Shown here in pieces: positions 5,221 through 27,697 of a stretch of 64,000 bases of DNA. The notes beneath the pieces are model-generated. The model was not told the origin of the DNA and made no database searches. It was given only the letters and a program-made list of their open reading frames with translations. The position numbers and the translations under genes were made by a program. Source of the DNA: Candidatus Saccharimonadia bacterium (GTDB taxonomy: Bacteria; Patescibacteriota; Saccharimonadia; Saccharimonadales; 2-12-FULL-41-12); NCBI GenBank assembly GCA_963717365.1, contig OY970327.1, positions 720,348 through 784,347 of the forward strand. Reading direction: 5' to 3'. Position 1 is the stretch's first letter, and each line of letters begins with the position of its first letter.

Positions 5221-6009
5221 TTAGGCTGCTACGGCAAAATTGCGATAATTTTCTAGATTACCGCCAGTCATTTGGTCAAGCAATACCGGATTCATGGCCA
5301 GAACAGATGCGGCGAAATCGTCGGCAAAAGTTTCGGAGGTCATGTCGCGGTATGCGTCGTGCTGTTTCTGTAACAACTCCTCCATAGTAGCCACTCCCAA
5401 GCTGTCATGTATAGCATCCCAATTTTTTTGTACGAATGTATTTGCGCGAGTACCTTCGCTCATGATTGCTGATACGGTTGCCCGGCCAATTGGCAGCGCC
5501 AGCTTTTCCCGCTTAACCCGGGTATTTAATTCTTCAGGGTTGTTTTCATAATCCATATATTCACTAACATGCCCTAGCTCGTGCAGTAAAGCAAAAACAT
5601 GCATTAGTTGAGGAGTTATTTCATCTGAGGAAATACCCATTTTGTCTGCAAAGTGCTGTCTAGCTCCAGGTATACCGTCTAGCGAATCATCTATTTTTAA
5701 TAGCTTATCGTCTAAATTGTCTACTGACAAATGGACTTGGTGTCGGCCGTTTTCCGATACCCAGGCAGGTCGCGCTCTAGCGATACTTGAACTTTCGTCG
5801 TCAAGCGGTACAATTTCCACGTCAGCAAGCCGAGGATCAAGCTTAACTGCTTCAAGATAAGCTGTTTCCAATATTACGCCCATCTCCGCTCCGCGTAATA
5901 ATTCAACATTCTGCGATTCTATCTCACCTACAGACATAGGTACCGAATAAATTTCTGGTTTTGTTTCGGGAAGAATTCTTGGGTTTAAACCGGGTGCTTC
6001 GTGTGACAT
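5221..6009 (-). CDS. hypothetical protein with HExxH motif (putative zinc metallopeptidase)
   Basis: 262-aa ORF with HELGH at FALLHELGHVSEY. No other recognisable family signature. Confidence 0.55.
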   Translation of the reverse strand: MSHEAPGLNPRILPETKPEIYSVPMSVGEIESQNVELLRGAEMGVILETAYLEAVKLDPRLADVEIVPLDDESSSIARARPAWVSENGRHQVHLSVDNLDDKLLKIDDSLDGIPGARQHFADKMGISSDEITPQLMHVFALLHELGHVSEYMDYENNPEELNTRVKREKLALPIGRATVSAIMSEGTRANTFVQKNWDAIHDSLGVATMEELLQKQHDAYRDMTSETFADDFAASVLAMNPVLLDQMTGGNLENYRNFAVAA

Positions 6010-6143
6010 ATTATTTTATATATTAACTTGGTTATATACTATAAATTATAACAAAAAATAGCTACTTTGTCAATAGATATAATTGACAAATCTACATATT
6101 TATGATACTGTCTAAGGCAAAGTAATCAAAATCACACTAAAAC

Positions 6144-6665
6144 CTAGCTACTTACAACTTCTAGATCCTTGGTTTCGATTGTCCCCAGGTAGAGAACATG
6201 CGGTGCTCCTGCATACGTCAGCGGCTGTTCGCCTTGTGCACGGGCGTCCCGGTAATGCTGCTTAGTAATTTCGGGCAGATGGTTATTCTGGAGGTAATTC
6301 TCCTCAGTAAATGGCAGATATTCTTTTTCATACTGCCCTTCGCCCTTTTTATGGGTCACCATAATAGTCATTTTAGACTGGTCCAGACTGCTAGCGTCAA
6401 TCCGGAACGCTCTCCAAGACATATCTACTGGAGCACCTGTCTCTTGCATCGCTAACTTAACTTCTGTCGGATCTATCGGCGACAAGTGAATTACACTGTT
6501 CCAGTTGCCCAAGCCGGGGACTTCAGTATCCTTCACGTCTTCCCTGCCTTCATATTTGGCAGCCTGCCCGTCAAAAAGCTCTGGCAGCTTATATTTCATC
6601 TCATTGAGCGAATACAAAACGGTGCCCCGCATATCTTCTGGAACAAAGTGATATAAATACATCAT
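6144..6665 (-). CDS. hypothetical protein
   Basis: 173-aa ORF overlapping the stop of the upstream TrmB-family gene by 4 nt (operon). No recognised domain. Confidence 0.6.
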   Translation of the reverse strand: MMYLYHFVPEDMRGTVLYSLNEMKYKLPELFDGQAAKYEGREDVKDTEVPGLGNWNSVIHLSPIDPTEVKLAMQETGAPVDMSWRAFRIDASSLDQSKMTIMVTHKKGEGQYEKEYLPFTEENYLQNNHLPEITKQHYRDARAQGEQPLTYAGAPHVLYLGTIETKDLEVVSS

Positions 6666-7411
6666 AACTGTCCCGTTTTAGTATTCGCCCACAGGTGCTT
6701 AAAGATTATATTAAACGTAGCTGCTAAAATTTGATTGGTAATAATCGTCACCACTAAGCTCGGCTGGTACACAGTAAAGGCTATTTTGTCATCGTAAATT
6801 GCCACTTCTCCTTCGTGCGGTTGGCCATCCCAGAAACGGACTTCGTAGCCTTTATCGTTAAAATTTTTGATGTTTATCTCATTTTCAACCTCACTACTAA
6901 AAAGTATAAGAGAATGATTGGGCTTCTTGCGCGCATGAGCGTAGACCTCGAGCGCCTCCCGCGCTTCTTTATTCTTCGATGTCACGTCGCTGGCAAGAAT
7001 ACTTACCACTTGCTTCGACGCGGCCATATCCGTCAGTGACTTTTTATAGCCATTAATACCTTCTAGATATACTACCCCGGGCGTATGCTGTCCCAGGTTA
7101 TACTGCGAAATCAGCTCAGGCAAGACACTATTTAACGCAACGTTCGCCTGGCGCAACTCCATTTGCCGGGTCGTTATCAGTGCTTTTAATTTATCTGGGC
7201 TGGCAGGTGCGTATGTTCGGGGAGCAGTAGTATCGTCAATCACGACAAGTTTGTCGCCCGCAAGCCGCTCCAGTATTGTATAAACGTTTGTTCGACTCTC
7301 CTTCAATTCTTTAGCAAGCTGTGCTGCCGTCATACTTCCTTTTTCAATCAAGAAAAGATAGAATTTTGCTTCTTTGGCATTAAGACCGAGCCAGGCAAGA
7401 ACTTCTTCCAT
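6662..7411 (-). CDS. TrmB-family transcriptional regulator
   Basis: N-terminus LGLNAKEAKFYLFLIEKGSMTAAQLAKELKESRTNVYTILERL matches the TrmB winged-helix HTH. C-terminal TrmB-like effector domain. Confidence 0.75.
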   Translation of the reverse strand: MEEVLAWLGLNAKEAKFYLFLIEKGSMTAAQLAKELKESRTNVYTILERLAGDKLVVIDDTTAPRTYAPASPDKLKALITTRQMELRQANVALNSVLPELISQYNLGQHTPGVVYLEGINGYKKSLTDMAASKQVVSILASDVTSKNKEAREALEVYAHARKKPNHSLILFSSEVENEINIKNFNDKGYEVRFWDGQPHEGEVAIYDDKIAFTVYQPSLVVTIITNQILAATFNIIFKHLWANTKTGQL

Positions 7412-7569
7412 ACCAACATTTTACTATAAATGAATATTAGTGTCAATATTTTTACGACACTTTTAACACCTTATTTTTTATAATTTTATGTAATAGTATT
7501 GACACTATAGATACTTTTATGTAATAATACTACCCAAGTTCCAAATAGTGGGCAATAAGGAGAAAATTA

Positions 7570-8313
7570 ATGACCAACCCAGATCGACCACCAAATTCAA
7601 ATAATCAAGGACCAACACCAAATACACAACCCCTTGTAAGGAGAACATGGCCAGAATACATAGAAGATTTTAAGAGACTTTCAGGGCGGAATAATATTGA
7701 ATGGTTTGACTCCGATGCCTCAGGTCTAGAGATAGAGGCAATATGCTGGCCGGACAAGGGTAGTGAGACAGCAAACGAGGTTGAGTCGCTTCTTTCTGAA
7801 AGCATAAGGCCGCTGTTTGATGATGCTCGGAGATTAGAACGACATGACATGTATCACGAGTATAGCCTTTATCTTGGTCCTAATGGAGAGGATTCCGACC
7901 CTCATGGAACGTATACGCACTTCCTACTAACAGAAGGTGAACGCGCAGAAATTGTAGAGCGTTTAACGGACGTATTGGGACAAAGACTCTCTAGTGTTGA
8001 AGATCCTAGCACCGGATCGCATGTTGCTATGTGGAATCAGGATGACCAGGCTGTCCCTTTAATCGAACTTTCCGCTCATGATTTGTTGGTATTATCTGTG
8101 GTTATTTGTGCTTTCAGCCCTCATAATATCGAAAAGTCTCCTGATACGGATGACGTTAGGCGCATTCAAGAAATAATCAAGCGGGACAAATACTCCGTTG
8201 GACTTCATACTTTCGGTGCCGTCAAGCTAGCGGTTAACGGGCAATTAAGAGATCACCAGGCGCAGGAAATAATGCTGAATAATCCAGATGATGAAACTAA
8301 TGACCAATCATAA
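7570..8313 (+). CDS. hypothetical protein (acidic)
   Basis: 247-aa ORF with GGAG-like SD (aataaggagaaaattaATG). No recognised domain. Confidence 0.6.
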   Translation: MTNPDRPPNSNNQGPTPNTQPLVRRTWPEYIEDFKRLSGRNNIEWFDSDASGLEIEAICWPDKGSETANEVESLLSESIRPLFDDARRLERHDMYHEYSLYLGPNGEDSDPHGTYTHFLLTEGERAEIVERLTDVLGQRLSSVEDPSTGSHVAMWNQDDQAVPLIELSAHDLLVLSVVICAFSPHNIEKSPDTDDVRRIQEIIKRDKYSVGLHTFGAVKLAVNGQLRDHQAQEIMLNNPDDETNDQS

Positions 8314-9340
8314 TCTAATGCCTAAAGACTCTCATGAGCATCAAGAATCGACTATTGATAGCTTAAGTGAGAGATTTTCAACACTTGCGCAAGAACTCGC
8401 CAAAACCGGTCGAGTTGAAAGCCTGGCTTCTGCAGAGCTCGAGTTTAAGAGAGGCGGAGTAAGACTAGATCGAACAATTATCACAGAAGACGAAGTAACT
8501 ATTGCAGATTATGCAACATTCGACATGGGTGGCCCAACAAATTTTGCTGTCATACGATTCCATGAGGAAACGCCTACAGCGTTGGGCCGAGGAAGTTTTT
8601 ATGGAGCTTCAGATAAAGGTGTTTCATTTGAGCGCGATCTGATGGTATTTCCAGATTTTGAGGAAAATGATGAAAAATATGATGAAAAATGGGAAAAATA
8701 TGAGACGGCTCACGAAGCCGCTCGAGACAATCCTGATTCACCAGACGTCATCCACGGCCAAGTCGGCGAAGCCCACGCGCAAGGACTGCTCCAGATGATA
8801 CCCGAAATAACGCAAGCCGACCCTGAAGCGGCGGAAGCGGCTTTTGCCAAGATCATGGCAGTTGAGCTTGACCCTGAGTGTGACTTTACAGCCGGCGGTT
8901 CAGTAAGCAAGGAAACCGCAGCTGCACTCAGGACTGTTCTAGACACAATTTTAGACAAGCAGCCGCAAGAAGGCCAGGCACAAGTACAGTGCATGCTGCC
9001 CGATGGTAAAATTGCTATAATCGATTATGCTGACGGAAGCTTCAGGATCGACCGCGTTACTCGTCACGAAGATCAAAAGACTGCAACCTATCTCACATTT
9101 ATCCTAGAGCCCGGTAAGTCCCCTGACTCTAGCGAGATGGTAGGTCCTTATCTGAAAGAAGAGATTGAAGAACTCATCTTCCCGCTTTACCAAACTATCA
9201 TAACGATAGCGAACATAAAGGGGATAAACGTAGCAGAGCCACGTCAGCCAGAAGAGATTTTAGGTGAGCTTATAACAGTTATGCAAGCTTTAAAAGCAGA
9301 GATTCCAGATGATAATCATCAACCAACCGAAACAGCCTAG
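8288..9340 (+). CDS. hypothetical protein (acidic)
   Basis: 350-aa ORF overlapping the previous gene end. No recognised domain. Confidence 0.6.
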   Translation: MMKLMTNHNLMPKDSHEHQESTIDSLSERFSTLAQELAKTGRVESLASAELEFKRGGVRLDRTIITEDEVTIADYATFDMGGPTNFAVIRFHEETPTALGRGSFYGASDKGVSFERDLMVFPDFEENDEKYDEKWEKYETAHEAARDNPDSPDVIHGQVGEAHAQGLLQMIPEITQADPEAAEAAFAKIMAVELDPECDFTAGGSVSKETAAALRTVLDTILDKQPQEGQAQVQCMLPDGKIAIIDYADGSFRIDRVTRHEDQKTATYLTFILEPGKSPDSSEMVGPYLKEEIEELIFPLYQTIITIANIKGINVAEPRQPEEILGELITVMQALKAEIPDDNHQPTETA

Positions 9341-9513: not shown

Positions 9514-12500
9514 TTAGCGCTTAATATGAATTGTGTCTTCGTGATGCTTCACGCTTGCACCTGAATTCGAAGATGGGTCAGCAGTACGAATCTGCAATTC
9601 ACCCACTGGATGCGTTTGGTCATTTTTAGGCTGCGGCGGCAGTGGCTCCGACTTTGGTTCTGACTTTGGTTTGGGCCGGTCTTGAGACTGGTGTTCCGAA
9701 GCTGGTTCAGGCTTGTGCTTGAGCTTTTGAATAGGCTTAGGCGCTGGCGGCAGCGTAGGTTTTTGAGGAGCTGCAGCAAATGATAGCGGTTCTGGCCGAG
9801 ACGCAGGAGACGGAGTGTCAAAAGCCGGTGGCTGTACGTCATCAGAGACTCTCTGCGGGGTCGGTGGAGCTGTTCCGGGCTGTGGCTGTTCCAACGACGA
9901 TGTCGGTACAGGAGCTCCATGAAACACAGCAGTTGATGGTTGCTGGGGTTGAGGTTGAGCGGCAGAGGGATTAACCGGGCCAGCAGCAGGAGCTGGAGCT
10001 GGACCTTGTGTTTTGCGGCGCTTATCAAGCCATTGATCCAAGAATGAAGAACCACTTCCAGGAGGGCCCGCTGCAGCGGCACCTGGCGGCGGACCATAGC
10101 CTGCTGGAGCTCTCGATGCTGGAGCTGGGGATGGTCCGCCGTAAGGATTTGGTTGGGCGGCGGCCCCAAATGGCCGGCCAGCCGCGCCCTGACCCTGAGT
10201 CGGCCGAGTACCTTGTCCAAAGCCTTGAGCCGGGGCGGCTGGAGCTGTCTCTTTAACGTGCATGCGTTCAAATATTTCCTTCTCTACTATTTGGCGTGGA
10301 CGGGCATATTTAGCGGCCGACAACTGTTTCAAGGCATCGCCAAGCTCAGGATGCGGTTCGCCCAGCGGCGGCGAACCAGCCATACTGAACGCTTGGGTTG
10401 GCACACCATGGATAAGCGTACGAACAATCGCATTCCAGTTTGGTACGCGTAGCAAATCGTCGGCGTCAAACAGTGGCTGGAAGTAGCGGGTCAGTCCGTC
10501 AACATCATTTTGGCCAACCCGGAAGGCCACTGTAGTACCGACGTTACCAAAAACAGCATCACGGATCTCTTCGGTCAGCTGAGTGGTAAACTGGTTGGCA
10601 ACCACCAGGTTGAGACGGTATTTCCGGGCTTCAGACAAAATAGTCGCGAACGAATCGGTAGAAAAGTTCTGGAACTCGTCCACGTATAAGCAAAAGTCCT
10701 GGCGATCCTTCTCGGGAATATTAGCGCGTGACATAGCCGCCGACTGGAACTTCATCACAAAGATCATCCCAAGTAAATTGGAGTTCATATCACCGGTTCG
10801 GCCTTTTGACAGGTTAACAATGAGGATTTTCTTGTTATCCATAATATCGCGCAAGTCAAAGGCACTTTTAGTCTGACCGATGATATTACGCATCATACCG
10901 TTTGATAAGAAGGCGCCGAACTTACTGACAAACCAGCTGACCACATCGCCAAATTCGTTTGATTTCTGGGCTTGAACCATTTCCTTCTGCCAGAAATCGA
11001 GCACGTTCTGGTCGGTGACATACTTAAGTTTCTGGTTGACGTAATCCTTGTCACGAAACAGCTTTGGAATATCAACGAAGCTGCCGCCCTCTGGGCCAGC
11101 CATCACCGTCAGCGCGGCATTACGAAATAACGATTCATAGCGCGGCCCAATAATTCCCTGTTTCTGCGGATCATACAGCTTATACAGCACGTTAATAACT
11201 TCCTGGATGACAAAGTCCTTTTGGTCATCGGTTTTGGCTTCAAAGACATTAAGCCCCATTGGATAATCGGTGTCGGCCGGGCAGAAGTAAATAACGTCTT
11301 CAGTGCGCTCTTTTGGCACCATAGAGAGCAGTTTTTCAGCCGTGTCGCCGTGCGGGTCAATAAAAGCAAAGCCATTGCCCATCTGCATGTCCTGTAGCGC
11401 CAGGTTTTCAAGGAATGTTGACTTACCTGTACCGGTTTGTCCAACCGCATAGATGTGGCGCTGACGATCTTCTAGGGCCAGACGAATTGGCCGTTTGGTA
11501 CCGCGGAAGACGTTGTAGCCCAATAACAAACCATGTTCCGGCACATTACGTGGCCCATCAACCTGCTTAGAATCCTGGCGAACCAGCTGCGAGGTTGGAA
11601 TGTCCTCTTGCTGCGGGAAGTGGAATAAGGTAGCAAGTTCAACTGAATTTAAAATGTTAGAGTCGTGATGCTGCGGAAAAAACCGCATAATATAGGCAGT
11701 TACAAAACTTTCGATATCTTGGGCTGGTGTAAACTTAAAGCCGTTCTTGCCCGGAGCGTTATAAAGACCAAAACTAGCCACCATGTTGCCCTGAATGGAC
11801 TGGGCCCGCTGCACTACATTAGATGACGCGATTACCCGTATAGTCGTTTCAAACCCGGGCGTCCGAGTTTTTTCATCGATAGAATCAAGGATAGCCTGCT
11901 CGTGCGGTGACAAATTAGACCCCGGTGGCCCGGAACTTGGTCCTTTATCCTCTGGGGGCTTAGACAAGGCCGTCGACATATCATTAAAAAACTCCATAAA
12001 TCCTTTGACGCCTTTTTTCTTCTCATCACCCTTGCGTTTCTTGCTAGCCACCTCGTTAGCATCTTTTGCCCAACCAGGTCTCGCCGGACGCAACAGGAAT
12101 TGGATAGCAGCACCGTCATCTTTATCTAGAGTAGACAGTGAATTCAATAAAGACTGCAGCGGATCGCGTTTTAGGTCTTGGTAAGTGGCAATTGGATAAG
12201 CATACTTTTCTTTTAAGGTCAGCTCACCGCCAAGAGTACCGCTAATGCGGCCCAGTTTGCTAAAGATATTTGGCTCTAATGCTTCTTCTAGCCGGGCTGA
12301 AGGATAGGCACTGATGATCGCTTGTTTTACTAGATCAACAAGTCCAATTGGCACTGCCGTAAAGAAATCAATCCGCCCACTGTGAGCTACGATCTCAAAA
12401 GAAATATGCCGCTGTCCGTAGAAGTGGCGCTTAAAATTCTTTTCAAAGGTACTGGCAAGAATACTGTATAAAATTTGAGCCTTTGAAATATTTTCATCAG

Positions 12501-12699
12501 TTACATCACGAATATCACGGTTATTAGTATCGGTATCAGCACTGGGGGGCGGCAAGTGGATGATAAGAGGAACCATCTTGAGCCCGCGCTCAAAGTTTTT
12601 CTGCTCCCGAAGCACCTTGCGCGATTGAAAATATATAATTGGGCCAATAATAAAGCCCAGACATATGACTCCCACCAGTAACGCAATGAAAGTTGCCAT
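9514..12699 (-). CDS. membrane-anchored P-loop ATPase of the DUF87/HerA-FtsK-VirB4 superfamily with long P/Q/A-rich C-terminal tail
   Basis: N-terminal TM (FIALLVGVICLGFIIGPIIYF). Walker A AVGQTGTGKST followed by IDPHGD (HerA/DUF87-type motif). Walker B LYVDEFQNF. The last ~330 aa are low-complexity Pro/Gln/Ala/Gly-rich. The GC-rich tail creates spurious overlapping ORFs in other frames. Confidence 0.75.
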   Translation of the reverse strand: MATFIALLVGVICLGFIIGPIIYFQSRKVLREQKNFERGLKMVPLIIHLPPPSADTDTNNRDIRDVTDENISKAQILYSILASTFEKNFKRHFYGQRHISFEIVAHSGRIDFFTAVPIGLVDLVKQAIISAYPSARLEEALEPNIFSKLGRISGTLGGELTLKEKYAYPIATYQDLKRDPLQSLLNSLSTLDKDDGAAIQFLLRPARPGWAKDANEVASKKRKGDEKKKGVKGFMEFFNDMSTALSKPPEDKGPSSGPPGSNLSPHEQAILDSIDEKTRTPGFETTIRVIASSNVVQRAQSIQGNMVASFGLYNAPGKNGFKFTPAQDIESFVTAYIMRFFPQHHDSNILNSVELATLFHFPQQEDIPTSQLVRQDSKQVDGPRNVPEHGLLLGYNVFRGTKRPIRLALEDRQRHIYAVGQTGTGKSTFLENLALQDMQMGNGFAFIDPHGDTAEKLLSMVPKERTEDVIYFCPADTDYPMGLNVFEAKTDDQKDFVIQEVINVLYKLYDPQKQGIIGPRYESLFRNAALTVMAGPEGGSFVDIPKLFRDKDYVNQKLKYVTDQNVLDFWQKEMVQAQKSNEFGDVVSWFVSKFGAFLSNGMMRNIIGQTKSAFDLRDIMDNKKILIVNLSKGRTGDMNSNLLGMIFVMKFQSAAMSRANIPEKDRQDFCLYVDEFQNFSTDSFATILSEARKYRLNLVVANQFTTQLTEEIRDAVFGNVGTTVAFRVGQNDVDGLTRYFQPLFDADDLLRVPNWNAIVRTLIHGVPTQAFSMAGSPPLGEPHPELGDALKQLSAAKYARPRQIVEKEIFERMHVKETAPAAPAQGFGQGTRPTQGQGAAGRPFGAAAQPNPYGGPSPAPASRAPAGYGPPPGAAAAGPPGSGSSFLDQWLDKRRKTQGPAPAPAAGPVNPSAAQPQPQQPSTAVFHGAPVPTSSLEQPQPGTAPPTPQRVSDDVQPPAFDTPSPASRPEPLSFAAAPQKPTLPPAPKPIQKLKHKPEPASEHQSQDRPKPKSEPKSEPLPPQPKNDQTHPVGELQIRTADPSSNSGASVKHHEDTIHIKR

Positions 12700-12708
12700 A
12701 AGTAGGCC

Positions 12709-13161
12709 TTAAACCGTTCCTATATCCTTGTTATATCGTTTCTTCATATAGTCAGCTCTGATTTTGTTCAGCTCCTGTTGCTGTTTATAAGGGTCTTCAG
12801 CAGTATGCTCAACAATTTGTTTAGCTTTCAGTACCCACTCTTTTTCAATCAAGTCGCCGTCACCGGCCTCTTCCGGAACTGGCACCAGTGCCCGTGAATC
12901 CGGCACCGTCTGCGGAGCCTTCGCTTCTTCGGCTACCTCTGGGTCAAGCGCTGGCAAGGCGGCTGCCGGCTGCACAGAGTCTTGATGATTTTGGCTATCA
13001 TCCTGAATGCCCTCGTTCTGAGCAGGCACGGCCATGGTCGGTGCGGGCTGCCCGGCAGTAGCCGACAAATCCGGATCTGGCGCTAAAACTTGCTGCACCG
13101 AAGGTAACACGCCATTAGGCTCGCTAAATGTAGTTGTAGAATTAGTTTGCGGGTCGTCCAT
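12709..13161 (-). CDS. hypothetical Pro/Ala-rich protein, co-operonic with the ATPase
   Basis: 150-aa ORF ending 10 nt before the ATPase start. Low-complexity N-terminal half, helical C-terminus. Confidence 0.55.
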   Translation of the reverse strand: MDDPQTNSTTTFSEPNGVLPSVQQVLAPDPDLSATAGQPAPTMAVPAQNEGIQDDSQNHQDSVQPAAALPALDPEVAEEAKAPQTVPDSRALVPVPEEAGDGDLIEKEWVLKAKQIVEHTAEDPYKQQQELNKIRADYMKKRYNKDIGTV

Positions 13162-13219
13162 AATTACTACTTAATTATATCAGAGAAACAACCAATATAT
13201 CTGTTTACAGCTAACTGAT

Positions 13220-13585
13220 TTAGAACTTGCTTATATAGACACCCGACACCAACACGATTAAGCCCAGCAATATGCCGTCAATGCCCGATATACCACCCGT
13301 GGATTGTAAAATCATAACTACTGTAGCCATACTGGCTCCCACCAGAGATACCGTCCGTTTTTTGCGCGGCCGCTTAATTAACAGTTTTAAGCCAGCAAAA
13401 ATAGCTTGCAGCGTGCTAAACACAATAAAGAAGAAGAGTATTACCGGTATAACCAGCAGCCCAATACCAACTTCTGTAGGACTAGTAAGTGTCAGAAATA
13501 AGCCAAGGCCCACACTGCAGATCAGCGAAGCAAATATATATCTATGTCTTGTAAGCGTATTCATAACTAATCCGTATTTAATCAC
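13220..13585 (-). CDS. small integral membrane protein (3-4 TM)
   Basis: 121-aa very hydrophobic ORF, first gene of the ATPase operon. Confidence 0.55.
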   Translation of the reverse strand: MIKYGLVMNTLTRHRYIFASLICSVGLGLFLTLTSPTEVGIGLLVIPVILFFFIVFSTLQAIFAGLKLLIKRPRKKRTVSLVGASMATVVMILQSTGGISGIDGILLGLIVLVSGVYISKF

Positions 13586-14131
13586 AATATAATCAAAGTA
13601 ATAATTTTGTAGTGCAATTTTATATAAATAGAGCCCTTAACTTAGAGGGCTCTATTTATATAATTCTAAGGTGCCGTTGGGACGATAAAACCGCTCAATT
13701 AAATTACTTTATAGCGCTTATCGTCCACTTGGCTTTGACTGACCGCTCACTCATGCTTTAGGCAATTGTGAGCGACGATTGGTTATGGTTGAAATCTTTG
13801 TGTTACGGCATTTTTTTACTTTTTGTTTTTACGGTTTACTGTCTACAGCCTACTACGGATATTGATTTTTGTCAATACATATTAGTTGTAATACAAACTA
13901 CATTACAGATAAGGAGATATTAGTAACTACTCGTATAACAGTTGTAATTAGTAGTAATTATAACATCAATAATTTTAGAGAAAAATTCATTATCACGATG
14001 TTCCGGCCGTAATTAATCGCTTAACAAGGCTTTTTAGGCAGCAAAAATACCGCGTATTAACGTCTAGATTTTATATAGATTTAATCTACAAATGAGCACT
14101 TTTATGCGCCAAGCCGCTTTATTCTAAATAC

Positions 14132-14923
14132 CTAATGGGGATGATTAGGTTCACTATTTTGCGCGCTTCCACCTGCCAGAATATATGACAGGTCATGCCT
14201 GCAAATCTCGCATCGGCAATTGTTTTGCATGATTGGCTGGCGCCCGCCAAGCGGCCGAACAACATGGTCTACGATCGCCGACCAGTATGTATATTTTTTC
14301 TGAACGTCAGCTGTACTTACAAATTTTTTAAGTTTACTCGCCAATTTAGCGTCCCAGGCTTCAAGGTTACTCAAGACGTTTTTGCTGCTCACCCACCATT
14401 TACCGTTTATCCTATAGTGTATTTTAAGAATTTCTCCTATATTGGCGTGCATTGAATACAGAGAGGAGGATGGGTCACTCTCCAAAGCCCGTTCAACCTT
14501 ATTATTGGCATGGTAAATCATAAATTGTACAAATTTATGGTCTTTATTGGTATATTTTTTGGGTTTGATACCCTGCACTCTTCTTTGCAAGGCTGTTAGT
14601 TGGCCAGTTTTATCAAATACTAGTACGGCACGAGCCAAATTAGGCTCTCGCTCGCCACTAAGAATCTCTTCCTCGGTAAATTCCTCAATTTGTTTCATCG
14701 AACGGAAAGTAATATCCAACTTATAGTCATCAAATCCCGGGTGGTTAATGTTTTCGCACAAATTATCGGCGTCAACAATTACCTTCACGTCTAGGTCGCT
14801 GTGCTGGTTACTCGTGCCTTCAGCGACCGATCCGAAGATAAATGCGGCTTGGTAACGAGGCCGGGTGCGTAGCGACGCAATGGCTGCATAGGCGCGGGTA
14901 AATCGTGGCTCTAAAGTATCCAT
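14132..14923 (-). CDS. Pol-beta-superfamily nucleotidyltransferase (ANT/Lnu-like antibiotic nucleotidyltransferase fold)
   Basis: FGSVAEGTSNQHSDLDVKVIV is the GS-x(n)-D-x-D nucleotidyltransferase motif near the N-terminus. The 263-aa length and motif spacing resemble lincosamide (LnuB) and aminoglycoside nucleotidyltransferases. Stand-alone gene. Confidence 0.6.
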   Translation of the reverse strand: MDTLEPRFTRAYAAIASLRTRPRYQAAFIFGSVAEGTSNQHSDLDVKVIVDADNLCENINHPGFDDYKLDITFRSMKQIEEFTEEEILSGEREPNLARAVLVFDKTGQLTALQRRVQGIKPKKYTNKDHKFVQFMIYHANNKVERALESDPSSSLYSMHANIGEILKIHYRINGKWWVSSKNVLSNLEAWDAKLASKLKKFVSTADVQKKYTYWSAIVDHVVRPLGGRQPIMQNNCRCEICRHDLSYILAGGSAQNSEPNHPH

Positions 14924-18159: not shown

Positions 18160-18535
18160 AGGTGTCAGATTATGTATAAGCCGGGTTCTGTACACTAGCC
18201 AAAGGCTAATGTGCTGATCATCTATCTAGTCATGCCGTTGCCGGCACAATCAAGCGGATCTTATAACGAGCCTTCGGTGGGAACCTATTGAAGACACATT
18301 TCCTTGCAACAGACAGGGTTTACCTCCCTCAGCGGTCACCCGCAAAGGCTGTGAGCTCTTACCTCACTCGTTTCATCCTTACCGATCCAAGGTAAACCTT
18401 GAAAAGGCGGTATAGTTTCTGTGGCACTTTCCCTAAGGTTGCCCTTGGTCGCCATTAACGACTGTCCTTCCCTATGCTGCCCGGACTTTCCTCGTATGTC
18501 GTAAAACACACGCGATCAGCCGATAATCTGACCTT
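18160..18535 (-). ncRNA. rnpB: RNase P RNA (bacterial type), M1 RNA
   Basis: Minus strand carries GGAAAGUCCGGGC (complement of plus 18479-18491) ~45 nt from the predicted 5' end. ACAGAACCCGGCUUA (complement of plus 18177-18191) lies ~290 nt downstream, matching the universally conserved P4 strands and their spacing. 5' (GGUCAGAUUAU) and 3' (AUAAUCUGACACC) ends can pair as P1. The region is ORF-free and GC-richer than its surroundings. Confidence 0.88.
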
Positions 18536-18626: not shown

Positions 18627-19298
18627 CTAATGAGCGTCGAGACATTCGTTGACCATCGAATCTGCCAAAGCATTCATAGCTCGTGGCACATGGGCTAGCG
18701 TTACATGTTCAAATTGCGGAATCAGCTTGCGGATTGCCGTATGGTGTGGCACTAACTCAGCATTTTTGAGCTTCCAAATTCCCTGTACCTGATTAATCAC
18801 CAGTAGGCTATCCATATACACTTCAAGTTCTTTGATGCCTAGGGCCAAGGCTGCTTCAAGCCCTACCAGTAGACCCTTGTATTCAGCTTGGTTATTAGTG
18901 GTAACTCCTAAATAAGAACTTGACTTTTTTACAACGTTATCTTCCATATCATAGATAACATACCCAAGTGCGGATGGACCTGGATTACCTCGGGAGCCCC
19001 CGTCGGTAAACAATTTCGCCTTAGTTATAGCCGACACTGGTACTTCCTTAAAATTATCAATCAACGATATTTGATCAACGCGGTCAGCAAAATCCTGATC
19101 CTTATCAGTAACTGTGTCGCCGGCATCATGTGAAGTCAGCCACAGCTCCACAACATTATACATATTGGTTATCTTGGGATGATGATTCAGCTCACGTGCA
19201 ATCTGAGCCACCTTTTCTACAAACTCAAAGGCAGCATCAAAGTTCTTGAACTCAAATTTTCGATACAGCGAATTGTCTATTGTTTGCCACATACTCAA
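18627..19298 (-). CDS. rnhA: fusion protein: N-terminal DCoH/pterin-4a-carbinolamine-dehydratase-like domain + C-terminal ribonuclease HI
   Basis: The first ~75 aa (FKNFDAAFEFVEKVAQIARELNHHPKITNMYNVVELWLTSHD) match the PCD/DCoH fold signature. The remainder (LFTDGGSRGNPGPSALGYVIY...NNQAEYKGLLVGLEAAL...VYMDSLLVINQ) matches RNase HI with DEDD catalytic residues. Confidence 0.75.
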   Translation of the reverse strand: MSMWQTIDNSLYRKFEFKNFDAAFEFVEKVAQIARELNHHPKITNMYNVVELWLTSHDAGDTVTDKDQDFADRVDQISLIDNFKEVPVSAITKAKLFTDGGSRGNPGPSALGYVIYDMEDNVVKKSSSYLGVTTNNQAEYKGLLVGLEAALALGIKELEVYMDSLLVINQVQGIWKLKNAELVPHHTAIRKLIPQFEHVTLAHVPRAMNALADSMVNECLDAH

Positions 19299-20376: not shown

Positions 20377-21747
20377 CTAAGAAGCGTGAGCGTAAGCCGG
20401 TTGCCGGATCAACTGCAGGTCCATCTCTGTTCCATATCCCTGGCTGTCGTTAATAGCAAGCTGAATTCTGGCGTTCTGAGGATCAACTGGTTCGCCAGCA
20501 ACAATACGATGTAATTCATTGTCAGGGTCATACGCAAGACTAGCCAAGGTTGAACCATCTTCTCCCTGACTCCATTCAATCGCGTCGTTCATGCGGCTCT
20601 CGCCGCTTCTTCGTATCGCGGTGTCCGAGTCAAATTCGACAAATCCTAGTTTCCAAAGCGCGGCCGCGGCTCCACCAACATAATCAGTTTGATCCTGAAT
20701 ATTATTATGCAACTGCCAGTTATTGCTAGTGAAACTCTCGGTAGTAAAGGCCTTCCCGCTGTTCTCTAATGCTACAGGTCCTGTTCGCTTGACAGAAGTT
20801 GGCGTTAAAGGCAGTTCCTGCGTAACAACATCGCCTAAAATCTGATAATTAAGGAGTGAAAAACTGCCGCCAATGTAGCGCTTATCGGCAGCCTGTTTCA
20901 GTGTTGATTTTGCCAAATCATCATAATCAGAAGCTGTAATGCCAAAGCGACGTGGCAGTGACCGAGAGAAAGCATCAGAATCACGCTTCGCAAAACTCTC
21001 GCCGAGCTGATTGGCCTTCTTCTGCATCTCAAAGTAACGGTCGTTTTGCATATTAACTTCATATTGCCTGTCGCGCTGATTTTGTTCGGCAGTCAGACGT
21101 TTCCGCTTTTCGGGATTTTCCTCAAGGTGTTTCTCCCAGGCTTTTTGCTTTTCAGTTTCAAACTGAGCTAAACGGCGATCAAGTGCTTGCTGACGCTTAT
21201 CATCAATAAGATCCAGCTTCTTATTAGCCCAGGATTCAACTGGACCCCTTTTAGCATTGCTGGCAGCCTGATTCTTCTTGGCAAGGCGTTCCGCTTTTTG
21301 AGTTGAACGCTGTAATCCGTTCCTATTTACACGATTAGTAAGGCTCAATATGTGAAGGCCAAGACGACGGCGTTTGCTTTTGGCTATTTCACCTAAATGG
21401 GTCTGCGGTAAAACTGCCTTGGAATTTGCTAGGTTTACACTTCTTTGGTAACGCTCAGCTTTTTGGCGGTTGCCCTCTTCGCGGTTTTCAGAAAATACTC
21501 TTGGCACATCTTTTGCGATAAGCACCAGATTAGCGACTGTAGAAACAGCCGCGCGTCCAAGCCGCTTAGTAAAGCCTACGTCGCGCTTTTTCGCCTGGCG
21601 TTGCTCGTGGATCCAATCATTCCAGATTGGTGCACCAGGAAAGGCTTCTTGTGCACCTTCAAGGCGTGCTGCACGTTTTGATTCACGTCGCCATTGTATG
21701 TCGCGCTGTATTTGTTCTTTTTTTGTATATTTTGGTGCCTTTGGCAT
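20377..21747 (-). CDS. hypothetical basic coiled-coil protein
   Basis: 456-aa Lys/Arg/Gln/Glu-rich ORF. No recognised domain. Confidence 0.55.
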   Translation of the reverse strand: MPKAPKYTKKEQIQRDIQWRRESKRAARLEGAQEAFPGAPIWNDWIHEQRQAKKRDVGFTKRLGRAAVSTVANLVLIAKDVPRVFSENREEGNRQKAERYQRSVNLANSKAVLPQTHLGEIAKSKRRRLGLHILSLTNRVNRNGLQRSTQKAERLAKKNQAASNAKRGPVESWANKKLDLIDDKRQQALDRRLAQFETEKQKAWEKHLEENPEKRKRLTAEQNQRDRQYEVNMQNDRYFEMQKKANQLGESFAKRDSDAFSRSLPRRFGITASDYDDLAKSTLKQAADKRYIGGSFSLLNYQILGDVVTQELPLTPTSVKRTGPVALENSGKAFTTESFTSNNWQLHNNIQDQTDYVGGAAAALWKLGFVEFDSDTAIRRSGESRMNDAIEWSQGEDGSTLASLAYDPDNELHRIVAGEPVDPQNARIQLAINDSQGYGTEMDLQLIRQPAYAHAS

Positions 21748-21817: not shown

Positions 21818-22990
21818 CTATGGCTTACCATCGTCTACCTTAGCCCGTTCATGACGGCTTAAAGCTAACCTTGTGACGCTAGGCCACGACTTGAGTGGAA
21901 AAACCTGAAGCATTCTGGAGGTTATATTACCAGCCATTGCTGGATCTAGGCCCTGATTATCAATATAGTGATTGCGGAGTGCCCCAAAAGCTTCAGCAGC
22001 AGCTTGGGTTCGTTCACGAAAAGCTGGAGCTACCTCACCTGGGTTAAAGTATTGGTTAACAATTATATCGGTGATCCCTGCTAGTATCTTAACGACTCGC
22101 TCCGGTGGGAAATCCGGATGACCTCCCGGAACCCTTTCGTCCATCATAACCAATTGAGTAAAGTAGGCATCCAGCTCATCTTTATACAATTGTTCTTGGG
22201 GCGTGTCAGTGTTTTCTAAATTTTTTATGGCCTGCTTAAATAGTTTTCGCATGCCTTCATCCTCTTCAACCATTTTCATAGTACCCATAAAAAGTTCTCT
22301 GGTGTAAGCTTCGGTTGTTCCATTGTTAAGCAAGTGCCGATCCTCATGTAGAATAGACGCTTCGTAGTTGTCGTGCGCTGCTTGATTATCAGGCTCCTCC
22401 GGCCGAGCCACAAAAAGCGTAGGTATCGTATGTATAACCGACAACGGGATAGGACAGTAAAATGCCGTGGCCTGCCCCTTTCGCGGTCCCATCATTATGG
22501 TTTGCAGATGATCAATATCATCCTGATCTAGCTCAAACTTCAGAGAAGTAGGACCGTTTACAGCTTTTACGGAACCGGTTAGGTCTATTCGTTTTCCTAA
22601 GCTACCTAGTGCTTCGTGAAAAAGTCGGCTGGATAACTTAGGTCCAGCAGTTTCCCCTGTCTCATCGATTGTAGTAGGCTCTTCCTGTCTCATCGATTGA
22701 CGAGTTGCGCTCCAAAAAGAATTAATAGTGGCTTTACGCTCAGCCATATTCCTAGCACCACAGGCAAAAACTTTCCGGTATGGGGCAAGCGGGGGGTATT
22801 TATCGGCAATCTCAAGGGCGGCATCCGACCATTCCCAGGAATTAGCGGTTGTCATTACTTTAGTTTCAAATTCAATTTGGGCAAGAGCGTAGCTCTCCGC
22901 TACTTCAATAATGCCACCCCTAGGTATCGTTTCTGATTGTTCGGCGGTGATATCATTATTTTCAATTGGGGGACGTTCTGGTGTGGGCAT
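21818..22990 (-). CDS. hypothetical protein
   Basis: 390-aa ORF. No recognised domain. Confidence 0.55.
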   Translation of the reverse strand: MPTPERPPIENNDITAEQSETIPRGGIIEVAESYALAQIEFETKVMTTANSWEWSDAALEIADKYPPLAPYRKVFACGARNMAERKATINSFWSATRQSMRQEEPTTIDETGETAGPKLSSRLFHEALGSLGKRIDLTGSVKAVNGPTSLKFELDQDDIDHLQTIMMGPRKGQATAFYCPIPLSVIHTIPTLFVARPEEPDNQAAHDNYEASILHEDRHLLNNGTTEAYTRELFMGTMKMVEEDEGMRKLFKQAIKNLENTDTPQEQLYKDELDAYFTQLVMMDERVPGGHPDFPPERVVKILAGITDIIVNQYFNPGEVAPAFRERTQAAAEAFGALRNHYIDNQGLDPAMAGNITSRMLQVFPLKSWPSVTRLALSRHERAKVDDGKP

Positions 22991-23168: not shown

Positions 23169-24362
23169 ATGTCTATTGAAGCCGGCGGTGAGGTTGGTGG
23201 CTATAACCGCAGAGAAATACTAAAACTAGGTGCTGTATTTGGCGGTGGTGTTCTCACGGCTCAACTTGGCCCAGAAATTACTGGATTACCTGAAGTAAAG
23301 CCACATTATACTGAGGGCGATGTCATCCAGACTCCTATTGGCGATCTGGTAGTCGAGGGCTGGCAAGTTCAAAGAGCAATCAAAAAAACCGATGATCCTA
23401 ATGGTCTTGATGATTTCAAAATAAGTATTGTTGATGAGTTTGGTTCCAGCACTTATTTCGAAAAAAATGGTGGCTCGTATGTGCTTGGCCGCGGTAAATC
23501 GGGTAAATTTGTGGATGCGCTGCCCTTTTATCCGTCACCGTATGGAGACCCAGTTACTCTCATTTTAAATATGGGATCACGAGCAGTCGCCCACGCCAAT
23601 AGCGGTAATCCTACGGTAGCGTACTCAATAAAACCTAGGGTTTTCACTGAAAGCCAATCAATTGAGTATGGTTTTGTTCTTTCTCAGGAGCCAGTTGACC
23701 TGGGGCAACTGAAGCAGGTCGCAAATTTAAGAGAAGCCTTCCAGCCATTTGTACTGGGCCTTGCCCCAATCTATGTATTTGCCGATACAACAAAAACTGT
23801 CAAAGACGAGGTTATATCTGGTGGCAGCCAGGATTCCAGGAAGGGCGTCATAGAAATGCAGACTAGCGCTTTTACTAACCCGCTGTACGAGGGTGAAGCG
23901 CTTGGTACAGCATTTCACGAATTATCTCATGAATTTATTCGACATTTACTAGAAAATACCGCGGCTTATCCCAGTAGCGCAGATATAGTTTATGGTCTGC
24001 AAGGAGCTTATAAGCCAATAGCGGCAACCTATAAAGGCGAGTACCGCGCCGATACATTAGCTGGAATACTGACTGAATCCACCTACATACATGTTCCTGG
24101 TAAGCCTGTTGGCTCTTCTCGTGCCGGACATCCCCAGGATAATTTTAATGAAATGTTTGCCTCAACCATGACGATCATGCGCTTTCATACCGAACCATTT
24201 TTGGCTGCCTTTGATAAATTGAAGGACACCGACAAACACTTAATCAAAAGCTTTGTTCGCGCTACGTTTAACGCTTTAGCGGAAACGGGCGCTTCGGATA
24301 AAAAATTACAAAATCTACTGCCGGAGGCGGCTATAATTAAGCATCGTGTACTGGGTAGATAA
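23169..24362 (+). CDS. putative Tat-secreted HExxH metalloprotease-like protein
   Basis: N-terminal NRREILKLGAVFGGGVLTA resembles a twin-arginine signal. HELSHE motif (FHELSHEFIRHL). A -10-like TAATAT ends 6 nt before the ATG, so the mRNA may be leaderless. Confidence 0.6.
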   Translation: MSIEAGGEVGGYNRREILKLGAVFGGGVLTAQLGPEITGLPEVKPHYTEGDVIQTPIGDLVVEGWQVQRAIKKTDDPNGLDDFKISIVDEFGSSTYFEKNGGSYVLGRGKSGKFVDALPFYPSPYGDPVTLILNMGSRAVAHANSGNPTVAYSIKPRVFTESQSIEYGFVLSQEPVDLGQLKQVANLREAFQPFVLGLAPIYVFADTTKTVKDEVISGGSQDSRKGVIEMQTSAFTNPLYEGEALGTAFHELSHEFIRHLLENTAAYPSSADIVYGLQGAYKPIAATYKGEYRADTLAGILTESTYIHVPGKPVGSSRAGHPQDNFNEMFASTMTIMRFHTEPFLAAFDKLKDTDKHLIKSFVRATFNALAETGASDKKLQNLLPEAAIIKHRVLGR

Positions 24363-24477: not shown

Positions 24478-25629
24478 TTATAGAGTTGTGGCCACGGCCT
24501 TACGAACTAAATAGTCATCCATAATTGTATATTCATCGTCATTACCGGGAATTGGCTGCCAATTATCTTCCGGGTATAGTTTATCTTCCTCATCACTATA
24601 GTACTCGGTAACGTCACACAAGAAACCGGTATTCATCTCAAGCTTGTTGCCTGGCCAGAGCGAAACGAAGTAAACCATAACCTGCTCTTGTTGAGTTAAG
24701 CTGTTGGGCGAGTCTTGGGCATCAACCGTGAGTTCATTGGCTAACTGTCTTGCATGTTGCTTAGGAATATGCCCGTTTACGGCATGCAATATATTTAGGC
24801 CAATTACACTCTCGGGTGTCAGGGCGGAGTTAATCTCAGGATATACAGCCTGAATTGTAGTAGTGTGTGGTTCGGCTTTCGGATTTGGATCAAGTAGCCC
24901 AAAAGTCCAAACTAGATCCGGGTTGTCACCAGGAACAGCTTCACCGGTTTCCTGCAACGTCTTAATATACTCCTCGCGGGTAACTAAAGCACCGGCTGTT
25001 GTCATATATCTTAAGCTATCGGTTGGAGACGAACCATAAATCGTGTCATCAGCCTGTGCGTCGGTATGTATAACAGGATCAAACGGGCTTGCACCACCCT
25101 TGATTGACCTGTATGCAACTGCTGCCTCAGCCATTCTTTGCCGGTGGGTCAAGTTCTGTCTGAAATCAATATTCATTGGAGCTGGCATTACTCGTGTGCC
25201 TGGATTAACTTCCAGAGCGGTTTGTAGTTTTGAAACTTGGTCTTCGCTTAGTTCCGGCATTCTATAGCCCAATTGTCCCCAAAATGCGCTAGTGATTTCG
25301 AGCTGCTCGCCAGCACTCAGAGGATGCTCAGTATCAAGGTAATTCTCGACGCGCCATTCCAGTAGCTCGCCCTGCATAGCGGCTTCATCACTGGTATTTT
25401 CGGCGGTTACGGCGGGCAGGCCAGCTCTTACTCTTGCTTCTGCCATCTGGCTTTCAAGGCCTTCAAGCCCAGCCATGAGCATATCGTCAGGAATATCGTC
25501 AGACATACCGGCCACGAAACGATTAGTCATCCTTAAATAATCTTGGCGTGCTCGATCTAAGTCGGCCATTGGATCACTGGAGGAGTCGCCTTCGTCGCCG
25601 GTGGTTTGTTTTGGCGCTTTTTCAGACAT
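24478..25629 (-). CDS. hypothetical acidic protein
   Basis: 383-aa ORF. No recognised domain. Confidence 0.55.
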   Translation of the reverse strand: MSEKAPKQTTGDEGDSSSDPMADLDRARQDYLRMTNRFVAGMSDDIPDDMLMAGLEGLESQMAEARVRAGLPAVTAENTSDEAAMQGELLEWRVENYLDTEHPLSAGEQLEITSAFWGQLGYRMPELSEDQVSKLQTALEVNPGTRVMPAPMNIDFRQNLTHRQRMAEAAVAYRSIKGGASPFDPVIHTDAQADDTIYGSSPTDSLRYMTTAGALVTREEYIKTLQETGEAVPGDNPDLVWTFGLLDPNPKAEPHTTTIQAVYPEINSALTPESVIGLNILHAVNGHIPKQHARQLANELTVDAQDSPNSLTQQEQVMVYFVSLWPGNKLEMNTGFLCDVTEYYSDEEDKLYPEDNWQPIPGNDDEYTIMDDYLVRKAVATTL

Positions 25630-27434: not shown

Positions 27435-27518
27435 AGTTATATCCTTACATTTTATCTATTTTTGTTTTTGTATCCTACGAACAATATTAGCATAAGTTGT
27501 TTATAATGTCAAGGTTCG

Positions 27519-27594
27519 TGGTCGGGGTGACAGGACTTGAACCTGCGACCTCACGGCCCCCAGCCGTACGCGCTACCAACTGCGCTACACCCCG
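27519..27594 (-). tRNA. tRNA-Pro (anticodon GGG)
   Basis: Reverse complement CGGGGTG-TA-GCGC-AGTTGGTA-GCGC-G-TACGG-CTGGGGG-CCGTG-AGGTC-GCAGG-TTCAAGT-CCTGT-CACCCCG-A-CCA folds as a cloverleaf with anticodon GGG. Confidence 0.85.
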
Positions 27595-27697
27595 TTGTCT
27601 GTTCGCCTATCTGGACAGTCAACTAACGACTTCGAATTATAGCATAGCAACAGACATAATACTTTACATTATCAAATATTTGTGCTATAATAGAATA

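Follow-up and report, generated by a model that had tools for sequence, protein, structure and literature searches.

Examination of a 64,000-nt stretch of the genome of a Candidatus Saccharimonadia bacterium (GenBank assembly GCA_963717365.1, contig OY970327.1, positions 720,348 to 784,347; hereafter the window) reveals three consecutive minus-strand open reading frames (ORFs) coding for a small polytopic membrane protein (p3), a small soluble protein (p2) and a membrane-anchored ATPase that resembles type IV coupling proteins (T4CPs; coordinates in Table 1). The initial annotation of this DNA had proposed such a three-gene unit of a membrane protein, a proline-rich protein and an ATPase. The ORFs are indeed present and the two upstream genes co-occur with the ATPase in relatives, though the spacers, given there as 10-58 nt, measure 58 nt between p3 and p2 and 9 nt between p2 and the ATPase. 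Given that more than 100 protein clusters are 71-85% identical to the ATPase over its first 740 residues and that the upstream genes are conserved, a chance origin of these ORFs is excluded.

Precomputed annotation places a protein identical to the ATPase (P0001), as well as all 120 best-listed homologs, in the Pfam family DUF8128 (PF26449, PF26449.1); our own Pfam scan of the ATPase gave no PF26449 match, and the assignment comes from the annotation of the identical protein. Sequence searches revealed this family to be very large. In a large protein database 6,894 of the 8,000 scored candidates match the ATPase, the best 120 being those with 71-85% identity over its first 740 residues, and an exhaustive search of 50%-identity representatives recovered 4,932 matching clusters at E<=1e-30. 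Full-length homolog alignments run at 33-64% identity, with a lower end of ~33%. A scan of one genome per species found at least 596 DUF8128 loci, which by their record names span Saccharibacteria and Woese-, Davies-, Curtiss-, Levy-, Roizman-, Uhr-, Berkel-, Peregrini-, Gracili- and Portnoybacteria; the few records bearing names from other phyla are all metagenome bins. On these comparisons the ATPase is a member of a Patescibacteria-wide core family, and an ordinary one rather than the minimal or novel module that had been suspected. A full-text literature search found no paper on DUF8128.

The sequence motifs named in the initial annotation, namely the N-terminal transmembrane segment (residues 1-26), the Walker A motif GQTGTGKST (420-428), the DPHGD motif (IDPHGD, 447-452) and the Walker B motif LYVDEFQNF (671-679), were all found. 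The motor additionally holds SEARKYRL (689-696), with R692 as a candidate arginine finger, and a sensor glutamine in VVANQ (699-703). Residues K426, D674, E675, E690, K693, Q703 and Q707 are invariant across 68 homologs of 30-62% identity, and by this comparison all catalytic residues of the ATPase are intact. Together with the TrwB matches given below, these motifs show a nucleotide-binding domain of the T4CP clade. Profile searches recovered T4CP-type models, as the initial annotation had anticipated, but only as sub-threshold matches: in Pfam, AAA_22, TraG-D_C (20.8 against a cutoff of 22), TrwB_AAD_bind (16.5 against 20.5) and DUF87 (17.4 against 23.2); in NCBIfam, far under the cutoffs, TraD (39.5 against 366), VirB4_CagE (16 against 643), VirD4-like, TrbC and the archaeal DNA-translocating ATPase CedD (a weak match, E 7e-8). 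None of the curated T4CP thresholds (TrwB_AAD_bind, TraG-D_C, T4SS-DNA_transf, NCBIfam TraD/VirD4) is reached, though some close homologs of the ATPase carry a precomputed PF02534 or PF12696. No FtsK_SpoIIIE, FtsK alpha or FtsK gamma model was matched (Pfam and NCBIfam, E<=0.1), nor was CagE_TrbE_VirB (Pfam).

A phmmer search against PDB sequences recovered TrwB and DotL at E about 1e-5, and with TrwB as query phmmer matched the DUF8128 family, while TrwK as query gave no match. In hhalign the family profile aligned with TrwB at 96% probability (E 3.9e-9) over residues 405-710, including a helical insertion; the motor aligned with a 12-sequence plasmid-derived VirB4 profile at 86% (E 4.9e-6) and with TrwK alone at 9.5%. 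By sequence, the motor clearly belongs with the coupling proteins, TrwB being a closer match than VirB4. Together the profile, phmmer, Foldseek and hhalign matches and the intact Walker motifs uphold the earlier placement of the ATPase in the HerA-FtsK/VirB4/VirD4 superfamily, and its best matches are not to an ordinary FtsK, an outcome that would have spoken against that placement. Matches to the PADLOC models mad8 (E 7e-15) and HerA reflect the shared P-loop fold, and since the locus carries no further defense-system signature a role in defense was rejected.

Two contigs of the IMG/VR collection encode relatives of the motor only, which are 41-44% identical to it and have neither a transmembrane helix nor a DUF8128 domain (L096, 5932-7230; L097, 5986-7734). 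These exceed the Pfam thresholds for TrwB_AAD_bind and TraG-D_C. One adjoins genes for an M23 peptidase and a PLD nuclease (L096), the other genes for a serine recombinase and a DNA methylase (L097). Possibly these proteins are cousins of the chromosomal family that belong to mobile elements.

The first 26 residues of the ATPase are strongly hydrophobic and are followed by a basic stretch (Kyte-Doolittle scan), so the remainder of the protein is predicted to be cytoplasmic. An AlphaFold2 model of residues 1-815, computed with 68 diverse homologs, is confident (pLDDT 90.7, pTM 0.83) and ordered through residue 814. It predicts a continuous N-terminal helix over residues 2-40, followed by an alpha/beta N-domain (42-362) that contains a disordered loop at ~225-262 and ends in a conserved ELATLFHFP. 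The initial annotation had missed this domain of 320 aa between the transmembrane helix and the motor. The predicted motor is interrupted by eight helices (491-621) between strands 469-472 and 625-629. On the model, and in the hhalign alignment with TrwB, this insertion in the nucleotide-binding domain corresponds to the all-alpha domain of coupling proteins.

Foldseek searches of the PDB with the full model gave the best E-values for TrwK/VirB4 of R388 (1e-15, ~900 aligned columns); the TM-score of this match is low because the domains are oriented differently. HerA (4d2i) came second, followed by TrwB (E 1e-12, TMt 0.6-0.65, root-mean-square deviation (rmsd) ~5 Å) and Cagbeta (TMt 0.52-0.55). 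With the N-domain modeled alone (residues 38-392; pLDDT 89.8, pTM 0.87), TrwK/VirB4 chains make up all of the top 14 matches (E 1.7e-6 to 3e-3, TMq 0.36-0.47), after which only unrelated folds appear, at E>=1e-2. The predicted fold of the N-domain hence resembles the N-terminal domain of VirB4. A PDB profile search with the N-domain returned only designed repeat proteins, and hhalign against TrwK singly or the 12-sequence VirB4 profile gave less than 1% (0.3% for the VirB4 profile). The ATPase as modeled thus has a single-helix anchor, then a domain whose predicted fold is like that of the VirB4 N-terminus, then a motor of the T4CP type that includes the all-alpha domain, and finally a tail.

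This tail, which follows the C-terminal helical hairpin, consists of 21% proline and 14% alanine. As the model is ordered to residue 814, it comprises 247 residues and not the 330 of the initial annotation. Nor is it unusually long, as had been claimed: Saccharibacteria orthologs have fast-evolving P/Q/A/S-rich tails of ~110-290 residues, the tails of some relatives exceed 700 aa, and relatives of 1,500-2,000 aa in total occur. Homologs from outside Saccharibacteria stop right after the terminal hairpin; the tail is confined to Saccharibacteria and, by sequence comparison, is typical for them. Two short motifs within it are conserved, namely SFLDQWLxK[RK], which lies 50-90 residues past the core (FLDxWL in 116 of the 134 homologs of at least 880 aa), and a C-terminal [ED]DTIxI[DK]R(DGN) preceded by GE[LV]xI, which is recognizable even in giant-tailed relatives. 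Among the latter are proteins of 1,267-2,006 aa (P0123-P0132; locus L023, 730-5436), with a core 55-59% identical to that of the ATPase and enormous tails ending in GE[VI]xxDxxGN. The C-terminal tail of F TraD binds TraM and that of Legionella DotL binds IcmSW/LvgA; by analogy, the tail of the ATPase looks like a flexible tether with terminal binding peptides.

Analysis of the upstream genes showed that p3 has about four hydrophobic helices (Kyte-Doolittle scan and reading of the sequence) and a basic KRPRKKR loop. Its identity to the genes found at this position in two other loci (L001 and L002) is 34%, and those genes start at the equivalent of M8 (ATG 13564); since relatives start there and the product started at GTG is absent from the protein collection, p3 is probably a protein of 114 aa. 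The product of p2 lacks a transmembrane segment and has a variable P/Q/A-rich N-terminal half; its only conserved part is a helical C-terminal domain of ~50 aa (DLIEKEWVxKAKxIxExTxxDPYxQQxE...YxKKRY), and it has no match in Pfam, NCBIfam or PADLOC. A jackhmmer search over the ORFs of 83 fetched loci placed p2 directly upstream of the ATPase gene in 36 and p3 upstream of p2 in 41; the p3-p2-ATPase order is preserved in practically all Saccharibacteria loci for which enough upstream sequence was available. This is the conservation of neighborhood that the initial annotation had called for. Between p2 and the ATPase gene the gap is mostly in the range of -4 to +24 nt, an indication of translational coupling. 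In these loci p3 was not detected beside the ATPase gene outside Saccharibacteria.

In other classes of Patescibacteria a different small gene occupies the position of p2; its products have a disordered N-terminal half and a conserved helical C-terminal end and belong to several sequence families. Given that hhalign of these against p2 gave less than 1%, they are only positional analogs of it. They include at least two unrelated families (L050, L051, L059, L065, L074 and L078-L080 as opposed to L054, L055, L057, L062, L081 and L082), the first terminating in ...RWLAEWC.../...TWLDMYWL... and the second in ...IPGVNKFFLEQEAKIKTDKI. In the first, the pattern aromatic-Leu-acidic-x-Trp-Leu loosely resembles the FLDQWL of the Saccharibacteria ATPase tail.

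Table 1. Coordinates of the operon and of other features of the window
Feature	Residues or length	Position (nt)	Strand	Basis or remark
p3, small polytopic membrane protein	121 aa from GTG	13220..13585	-	ORF, hydrophobic segments
p2, small soluble protein	150 aa	12709..13161	-	ORF
DUF8128-family membrane-anchored T4CP-like ATPase	1061 aa	9514..12699	-	ORF
ATPase N-terminal signal-anchor transmembrane helix	1-26	12622..12699	-	Kyte-Doolittle scan
ATPase DUF8128 N-domain	42-362	11614..12576	-	AlphaFold model, Foldseek
ATPase P-loop motor domain	391-780	10360..11529	-	motifs, hhalign, Foldseek
ATPase all-alpha motor insertion	491-621	10837..11229	-	AlphaFold model, hhalign to TrwB
ATPase C-terminal helical hairpin, LSxxKYGRPRxxVExEI	784-814	10258..10350	-	closes core; model and homolog alignment
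ATPase disordered P/A/Q/G/S-rich tail	815-1061	9517..10257	-	composition, coordinates
Tail motif SFLDQWLDKRRK	885-896	10012..10047	-	homolog comparison
Tail motif GELQIR	1033-1038	9586..9603	-	homolog comparison
Tail motif EDTIHIKR, C-terminal	1054-1061	9517..9540	-	homolog comparison
Perfect inverted repeat, 8-nt loop	18-nt arms	13620..13663	.	35 nt upstream of p3 GTG
ORFs without Pfam match		20377-21747, 21818-22990, 23169-24362, 24478-25629, 27497-28624		Pfam E<=0.001

The operon has a G+C content like that of the surrounding DNA, and a consensus promoter/terminator scan of its region found nothing above background. The inverted repeat (arms TTATATAAATAGAGCCCT / AGGGCTCTATTTATATAA) sits between an upstream nucleotidyltransferase gene and the operon, whose 5' limit it probably marks; it could be an operator or the terminator of that upstream gene. 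The Saccharibacteria neighborhood is fixed, with L20-L35-IF3, comM/yifB, the operon, two antisense genes and gyrB-gyrA; this fixed synteny indicates a chromosomal core gene and not a mobile element. Proximity to gyrB is limited to Saccharibacteria, and in other classes the DUF8128 family also sits among housekeeping genes. Other Saccharibacteria run from the ATPase gene to the antisense pair and on to gyrB, whereas in the window five extra genes (5221-9340) lie on the gyrB side: two acidic ORFs overlapping by 26 nt and without family match (7570-8313 and 8288-9340), a TrmB-family regulator (6662-7411) and two unannotated genes. No relaxase, VirB4 or further type IV secretion system (T4SS) family was found among the 27 window ORFs scanned with Pfam, and the window holds no paralog of the ATPase, in keeping with the initial annotation, which had seen no other T4SS components nearby. 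No relaxase, integrase or repeats flank the operon, and no nuclease gene adjoins it.

The remainder of the window offers several further observations. The gene between comM/yifB and the operon (14132-14923) codes for a Polbeta/NTP_transf_2 nucleotidyltransferase with weak PADLOC matches to the candidate defense families PDC-M05A and PDC-S09; no counterpart was called at that position in L001 or L003. A pterin-4a-carbinolamine dehydratase fused to an RNase H/RVT_3 domain (18627-19298) recurs as the same fusion in the same position in both of these loci. An OLD-like ATPase (41554-43161; AAA_15/AAA_21 with an OLD-like TOPRIM domain) overlaps by 4 nt a gene for an FAD-dependent oxidoreductase (DAO; 43158-44354); the combination of an OLD-like ATPase with TOPRIM is typical of anti-phage nucleases. 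Five ORFs of 375-456 aa between 20377 and 28624 have no Pfam match, and the last of them may not be a gene, given that it overlaps a tRNA-Pro on the other strand. The window also encodes a bacterial class A RNase P RNA (18161-18531, minus strand, 248.9 bits) and four tRNA genes.

Published data on the cultivated relative Southlakia epibionticum ML1 bear on the function of the operon. The same syntenic run is present there, with SEML1_0137 (IF3), SEML1_0138 (YifB) and SEML1_0145 (gyrB) as neighbors (Wang et al. 2023, Table S1; PMC10633639). That table gives transposon-sequencing (Tn-seq) calls (ES, essential; GD, growth-defect) at three time points in co-culture, which are NE/GD/GD for SEML1_0140 in the position of p3 (354 bp), GD/ES/ES for SEML1_0141 in the position of p2 (420 bp; 9 input insertions, none recovered) and ES/ES/ES for SEML1_0142 in the position of the ATPase (3060 bp, 1019 aa; 114 input insertions, 11/11/9 thereafter) (PMC10633639). 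We considered using the time-point pattern (ES as against GD at P0) to discriminate between T4SS and housekeeping genes and rejected it, since dnaA and ftsK are also GD at P0. SEML1_0142 is annotated as a 'TraM recognition domain-containing protein' and flagged as a core and Patescibacteria-enriched family; the three genes were scored but are not discussed in the text (PMC10633639). Published structure-based annotation gives SEML1_0142 a P-loop domain at 381-800 that matches the FtsK motor (ECOD e2iutB2). The ATPase of a related oral strain (L024) is also 1019 aa long.

In the same organism a T4SS cluster (SEML1_0006-0019) is essential and described as 'lacking recognizable coupling and relaxase proteins', while a second T4CP-like gene, SEML1_0293, with a TrwB_AAD_bind match, is non-essential (PMC10633639). 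The organism also has a canonical essential FtsK (SEML1_0096, with four transmembrane helices and alpha, beta and gamma domains), and SEML1_0008 represents the separate bona fide VirB4 of Patescibacteria. A recent survey counted 5,713 VirD4-like homologs in 2,918 of 3,035 Patescibacteria genomes, 148 of which lie near virB4, and VirB4 itself in 2,417 genomes, that is 96% of genomes for VirD4-like proteins as against 80% for VirB4 (Quinonero-Coronel et al. 2025; PMC12102498). It states that the coupling-protein homolog of ML1 is non-essential (PMC12102498); this homolog is most likely SEML1_0293.

In light of these observations, we lean, with somewhat less than even confidence, toward the proposal that the operon encodes a physically unlinked coupling or energizing ATPase of the chromosomal T4SS of Patescibacteria, which epibiotic growth requires, together with an adaptor and a membrane partner. 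The grounds for this are that the T4SS cluster has no coupling protein, that both the cluster and the ATPase are essential and Patescibacteria-enriched, and that an N-domain resembling VirB4 would be well suited to dock on the same components of the inner membrane. By analogy with its relatives TrwB, VirB4 and FtsK, the ATPase might form a hexameric ring under the membrane and, at the expense of ATP, pass a polymer (unfolded protein or else nucleic acid) on to a channel in the membrane. The product of p2, probably translationally coupled to the ATPase, could serve as an adaptor or regulator, in parallel with Cagbeta-CagZ, TraD-TraM and DotL-IcmSW, and p3, with its four predicted transmembrane helices, would be the membrane partner. 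The tail may act as a flexible tether, the conserved short motifs of which recruit partners as the tails of TraD and DotL do. More speculatively, the DUF8128 ATPase could constitute a hitherto unrecognized class of T4SS motor that combines a VirB4-like N-domain with a VirD4-like motor and, with p2 and p3, furnishes the essential coupling ATPase that is missing from the Patescibacteria T4SS. Such a hybrid motor would drive the exchange with the host cell, whatever its cargo, and might mark an evolutionary intermediate between VirB4 and the coupling proteins. The role in host interaction that the initial annotation had suggested is one that we likewise infer, with backing from the published essentiality of the syntenic genes in co-culture.

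Several points weigh against assigning the operon to the T4SS. The Pfam scores of the ATPase for T4CP families fall slightly under the gathering thresholds, and the likeness of its N-domain to VirB4 comes from Foldseek (TM 0.36-0.47, rmsd 8-12 Å) with no sequence-profile support. No relaxase or T4SS gene was recognized among the scanned window ORFs, and in none of the 83 loci does a VirB4 gene lie within 6 kb of the ATPase gene. The ATPase of the window was assigned as orthologous to SEML1_0142 from synteny, annotation and size rather than from a sequence alignment. The case for contact between the ATPase and the T4SS is indirect, and for a hexamer, for what p2 and p3 do and for the task of the tail it is argued by analogy. 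Furthermore, the survey's 96% of genomes for VirD4-like proteins against 80% for VirB4 implies that some lineages may hold the ATPase without a T4SS, though incomplete metagenome-assembled genomes could account for the difference.

Some of these same facts would fit a T4SS-independent membrane machine of its own, composed of the ATPase, p2 and p3 and moving a macromolecule across or into the membrane, for instance host-derived nucleic acid or protein that is imported or processed, or a dedicated substrate that is exported. We regard this as rather unlikely, though it is the alternative to be taken most seriously. Together the genes make up a conserved, self-contained unit, one product of which is a polytopic membrane protein, and this unit is never beside VirB4 in the 83 loci; T4CP-like genes are more common than VirB4, the family lies among housekeeping genes in other classes too, and the weak match to CedD would be in keeping with a translocase of this kind. 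However, a protein of 114 aa with four transmembrane helices is small for a conduit, p3 reaches only the growth-defect call in the Tn-seq data and was not detected beside the ATPase outside Saccharibacteria, and known T4CP-type motors use a separate channel. As to import of DNA, ComEC, the known route of DNA uptake, can be deleted in S. epibionticum (PMC12857230), so that such import is not obviously essential.

A housekeeping role in the chromosome or cell envelope, such as the segregation or pumping of DNA at division in the manner of FtsK, SpoIIIE or SftA or the quality control of membrane proteins, would make the ATPase essential for viability itself and not for interaction with the host. 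This agrees with the ES calls of SEML1_0142 at all three time points, like those of primase, rpoD and gyrB, with the conserved position beside gyrB-gyrA and translation genes, with the published match of SEML1_0142 to the FtsK motor, and with the combination of a membrane anchor and a long P/Q-rich low-complexity segment, as in FtsK. Yet the position beside gyrB is a feature of Saccharibacteria only, the window ATPase matches none of the FtsK_SpoIIIE, FtsK_alpha and gamma models, its order of transmembrane helix, N-domain, motor and tail departs from the transmembrane region, linker, motor and gamma domain of FtsK, and in sequence and fold it is closest to TrwB/VirD4 and VirB4. Replacement of FtsK by the ATPase was rejected, as the canonical essential FtsK SEML1_0096 coexists in the cultivated relative, and we consider a housekeeping role improbable overall. 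As for a remnant of an integrated conjugative element, that is, a decayed T4CP with no current core function, the annotation of 'TraM recognition' does suggest conjugation, and relatives that consist of the ATPase only (31-44% identity) are encoded on IMG/VR contigs, next to genes for an M23 peptidase, a PLD nuclease, a methylase and a serine recombinase. Against these stand the fixed chromosomal synteny across Saccharibacteria, the 71-85% identity over 740 aa in more than 100 clusters with catalytic residues intact, the missing relaxase, integrase and repeats at the flanks of an operon with the G+C content of its surroundings, and the essentiality of the positional counterpart in Tn-seq; conservation and essentiality effectively refute this explanation.

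It is already known that the family exists, as it is catalogued in Pfam as a domain of unknown function, its members have been counted as T4CP homologs, and the essentiality of the positional counterpart is published. Apparently new are the VirB4-like N-domain predicted for DUF8128 ATPases, the tail motifs, the conserved adaptor and membrane-partner genes beside the ATPase, and the recognition that S. epibionticum's essential T4CP-like gene belongs to the DUF8128 type. Patescibacteria, which live on other cells, account for much of bacterial diversity. Taken as a separate unit that is essential and universally conserved, the DUF8128 operon offers a concrete candidate for the missing T4SS motor. 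While the survey's 'non-essential' homolog is probably SEML1_0293, a second homolog and its small upstream partner were scored essential in Tn-seq. The operon thereby supplies testable parts, namely the N-domain, the motor and the motif-bearing tail, in a genetically tractable organism. The copy in the window is itself an ordinary member of an under-studied but important family.

Among known systems, the ATPase is most readily compared with the type IV coupling proteins TrwB of R388, VirD4, F TraD, Cagbeta of H. pylori and DotL of Legionella, with which it shares a membrane-anchored P-loop motor bearing an all-alpha insertion. The model matches Cagbeta in Foldseek at TMt 0.52-0.55, the disordered C-terminal extensions of TraD and DotL end in binding motifs as the tail appears to do, and p2, as a small helical partner encoded close to the ATPase, recalls the Cagbeta-CagZ pair (PDB 8dol, which is among the Foldseek matches). 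The coupling proteins differ in having two transmembrane helices directly followed by the nucleotide-binding domain, whereas the ATPase has one helix and then a folded domain of 320 aa; this conserved cytoplasmic DUF8128 domain, which classical T4CPs lack, sets its family apart. They are also borne on plasmids or integrative and conjugative elements and linked to a relaxase or T4SS, whereas the ATPase is encoded by an unlinked chromosomal core gene.

With VirB4 (TrwK of R388) the ATPase shares the layout of an N-domain followed by a motor, and with the VirB3-VirB4 fusions of IncX and Campylobacter plasmids an N-terminal membrane segment; the small membrane protein gene upstream echoes the virB2-virB3-virB4 order. 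The product of p2, having no transmembrane segment, is not VirB3-like. In contrast to VirB4, the motor is closer to TrwB, the N-domain shows no VirB4 similarity at the sequence level, and the gene does not lie in a T4SS cluster. FtsK/SpoIIIE and HerA belong with the ATPase, a presumed hexameric translocase, to the ASCE superfamily. FtsK differs in its N-terminus of four transmembrane helices, its alpha/beta motor and its gamma winged helix, none of which is found in the ATPase. The likeness to HerA comes from 4d2i among the Foldseek matches and from the weak DUF87 and PADLOC HerA/mad8 matches, but HerA has a HAS-barrel and a NurA partner; the ATPase has neither, and the fold search with its N-domain returns no HerA. 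The nearest parallel by gene order is the SEML1_0140-0142 run of S. epibionticum. The window ATPase has a longer tail than SEML1_0142, comes from a different, probably environmental lineage of Saccharibacterium (on a contig of 1.19 Mb) and is followed by five extra genes (5221-9340), but the order and the neighbors are the same, with IF3, yifB/comM, a small transmembrane gene, a second small gene, the ATPase gene, two antisense genes and gyrB.

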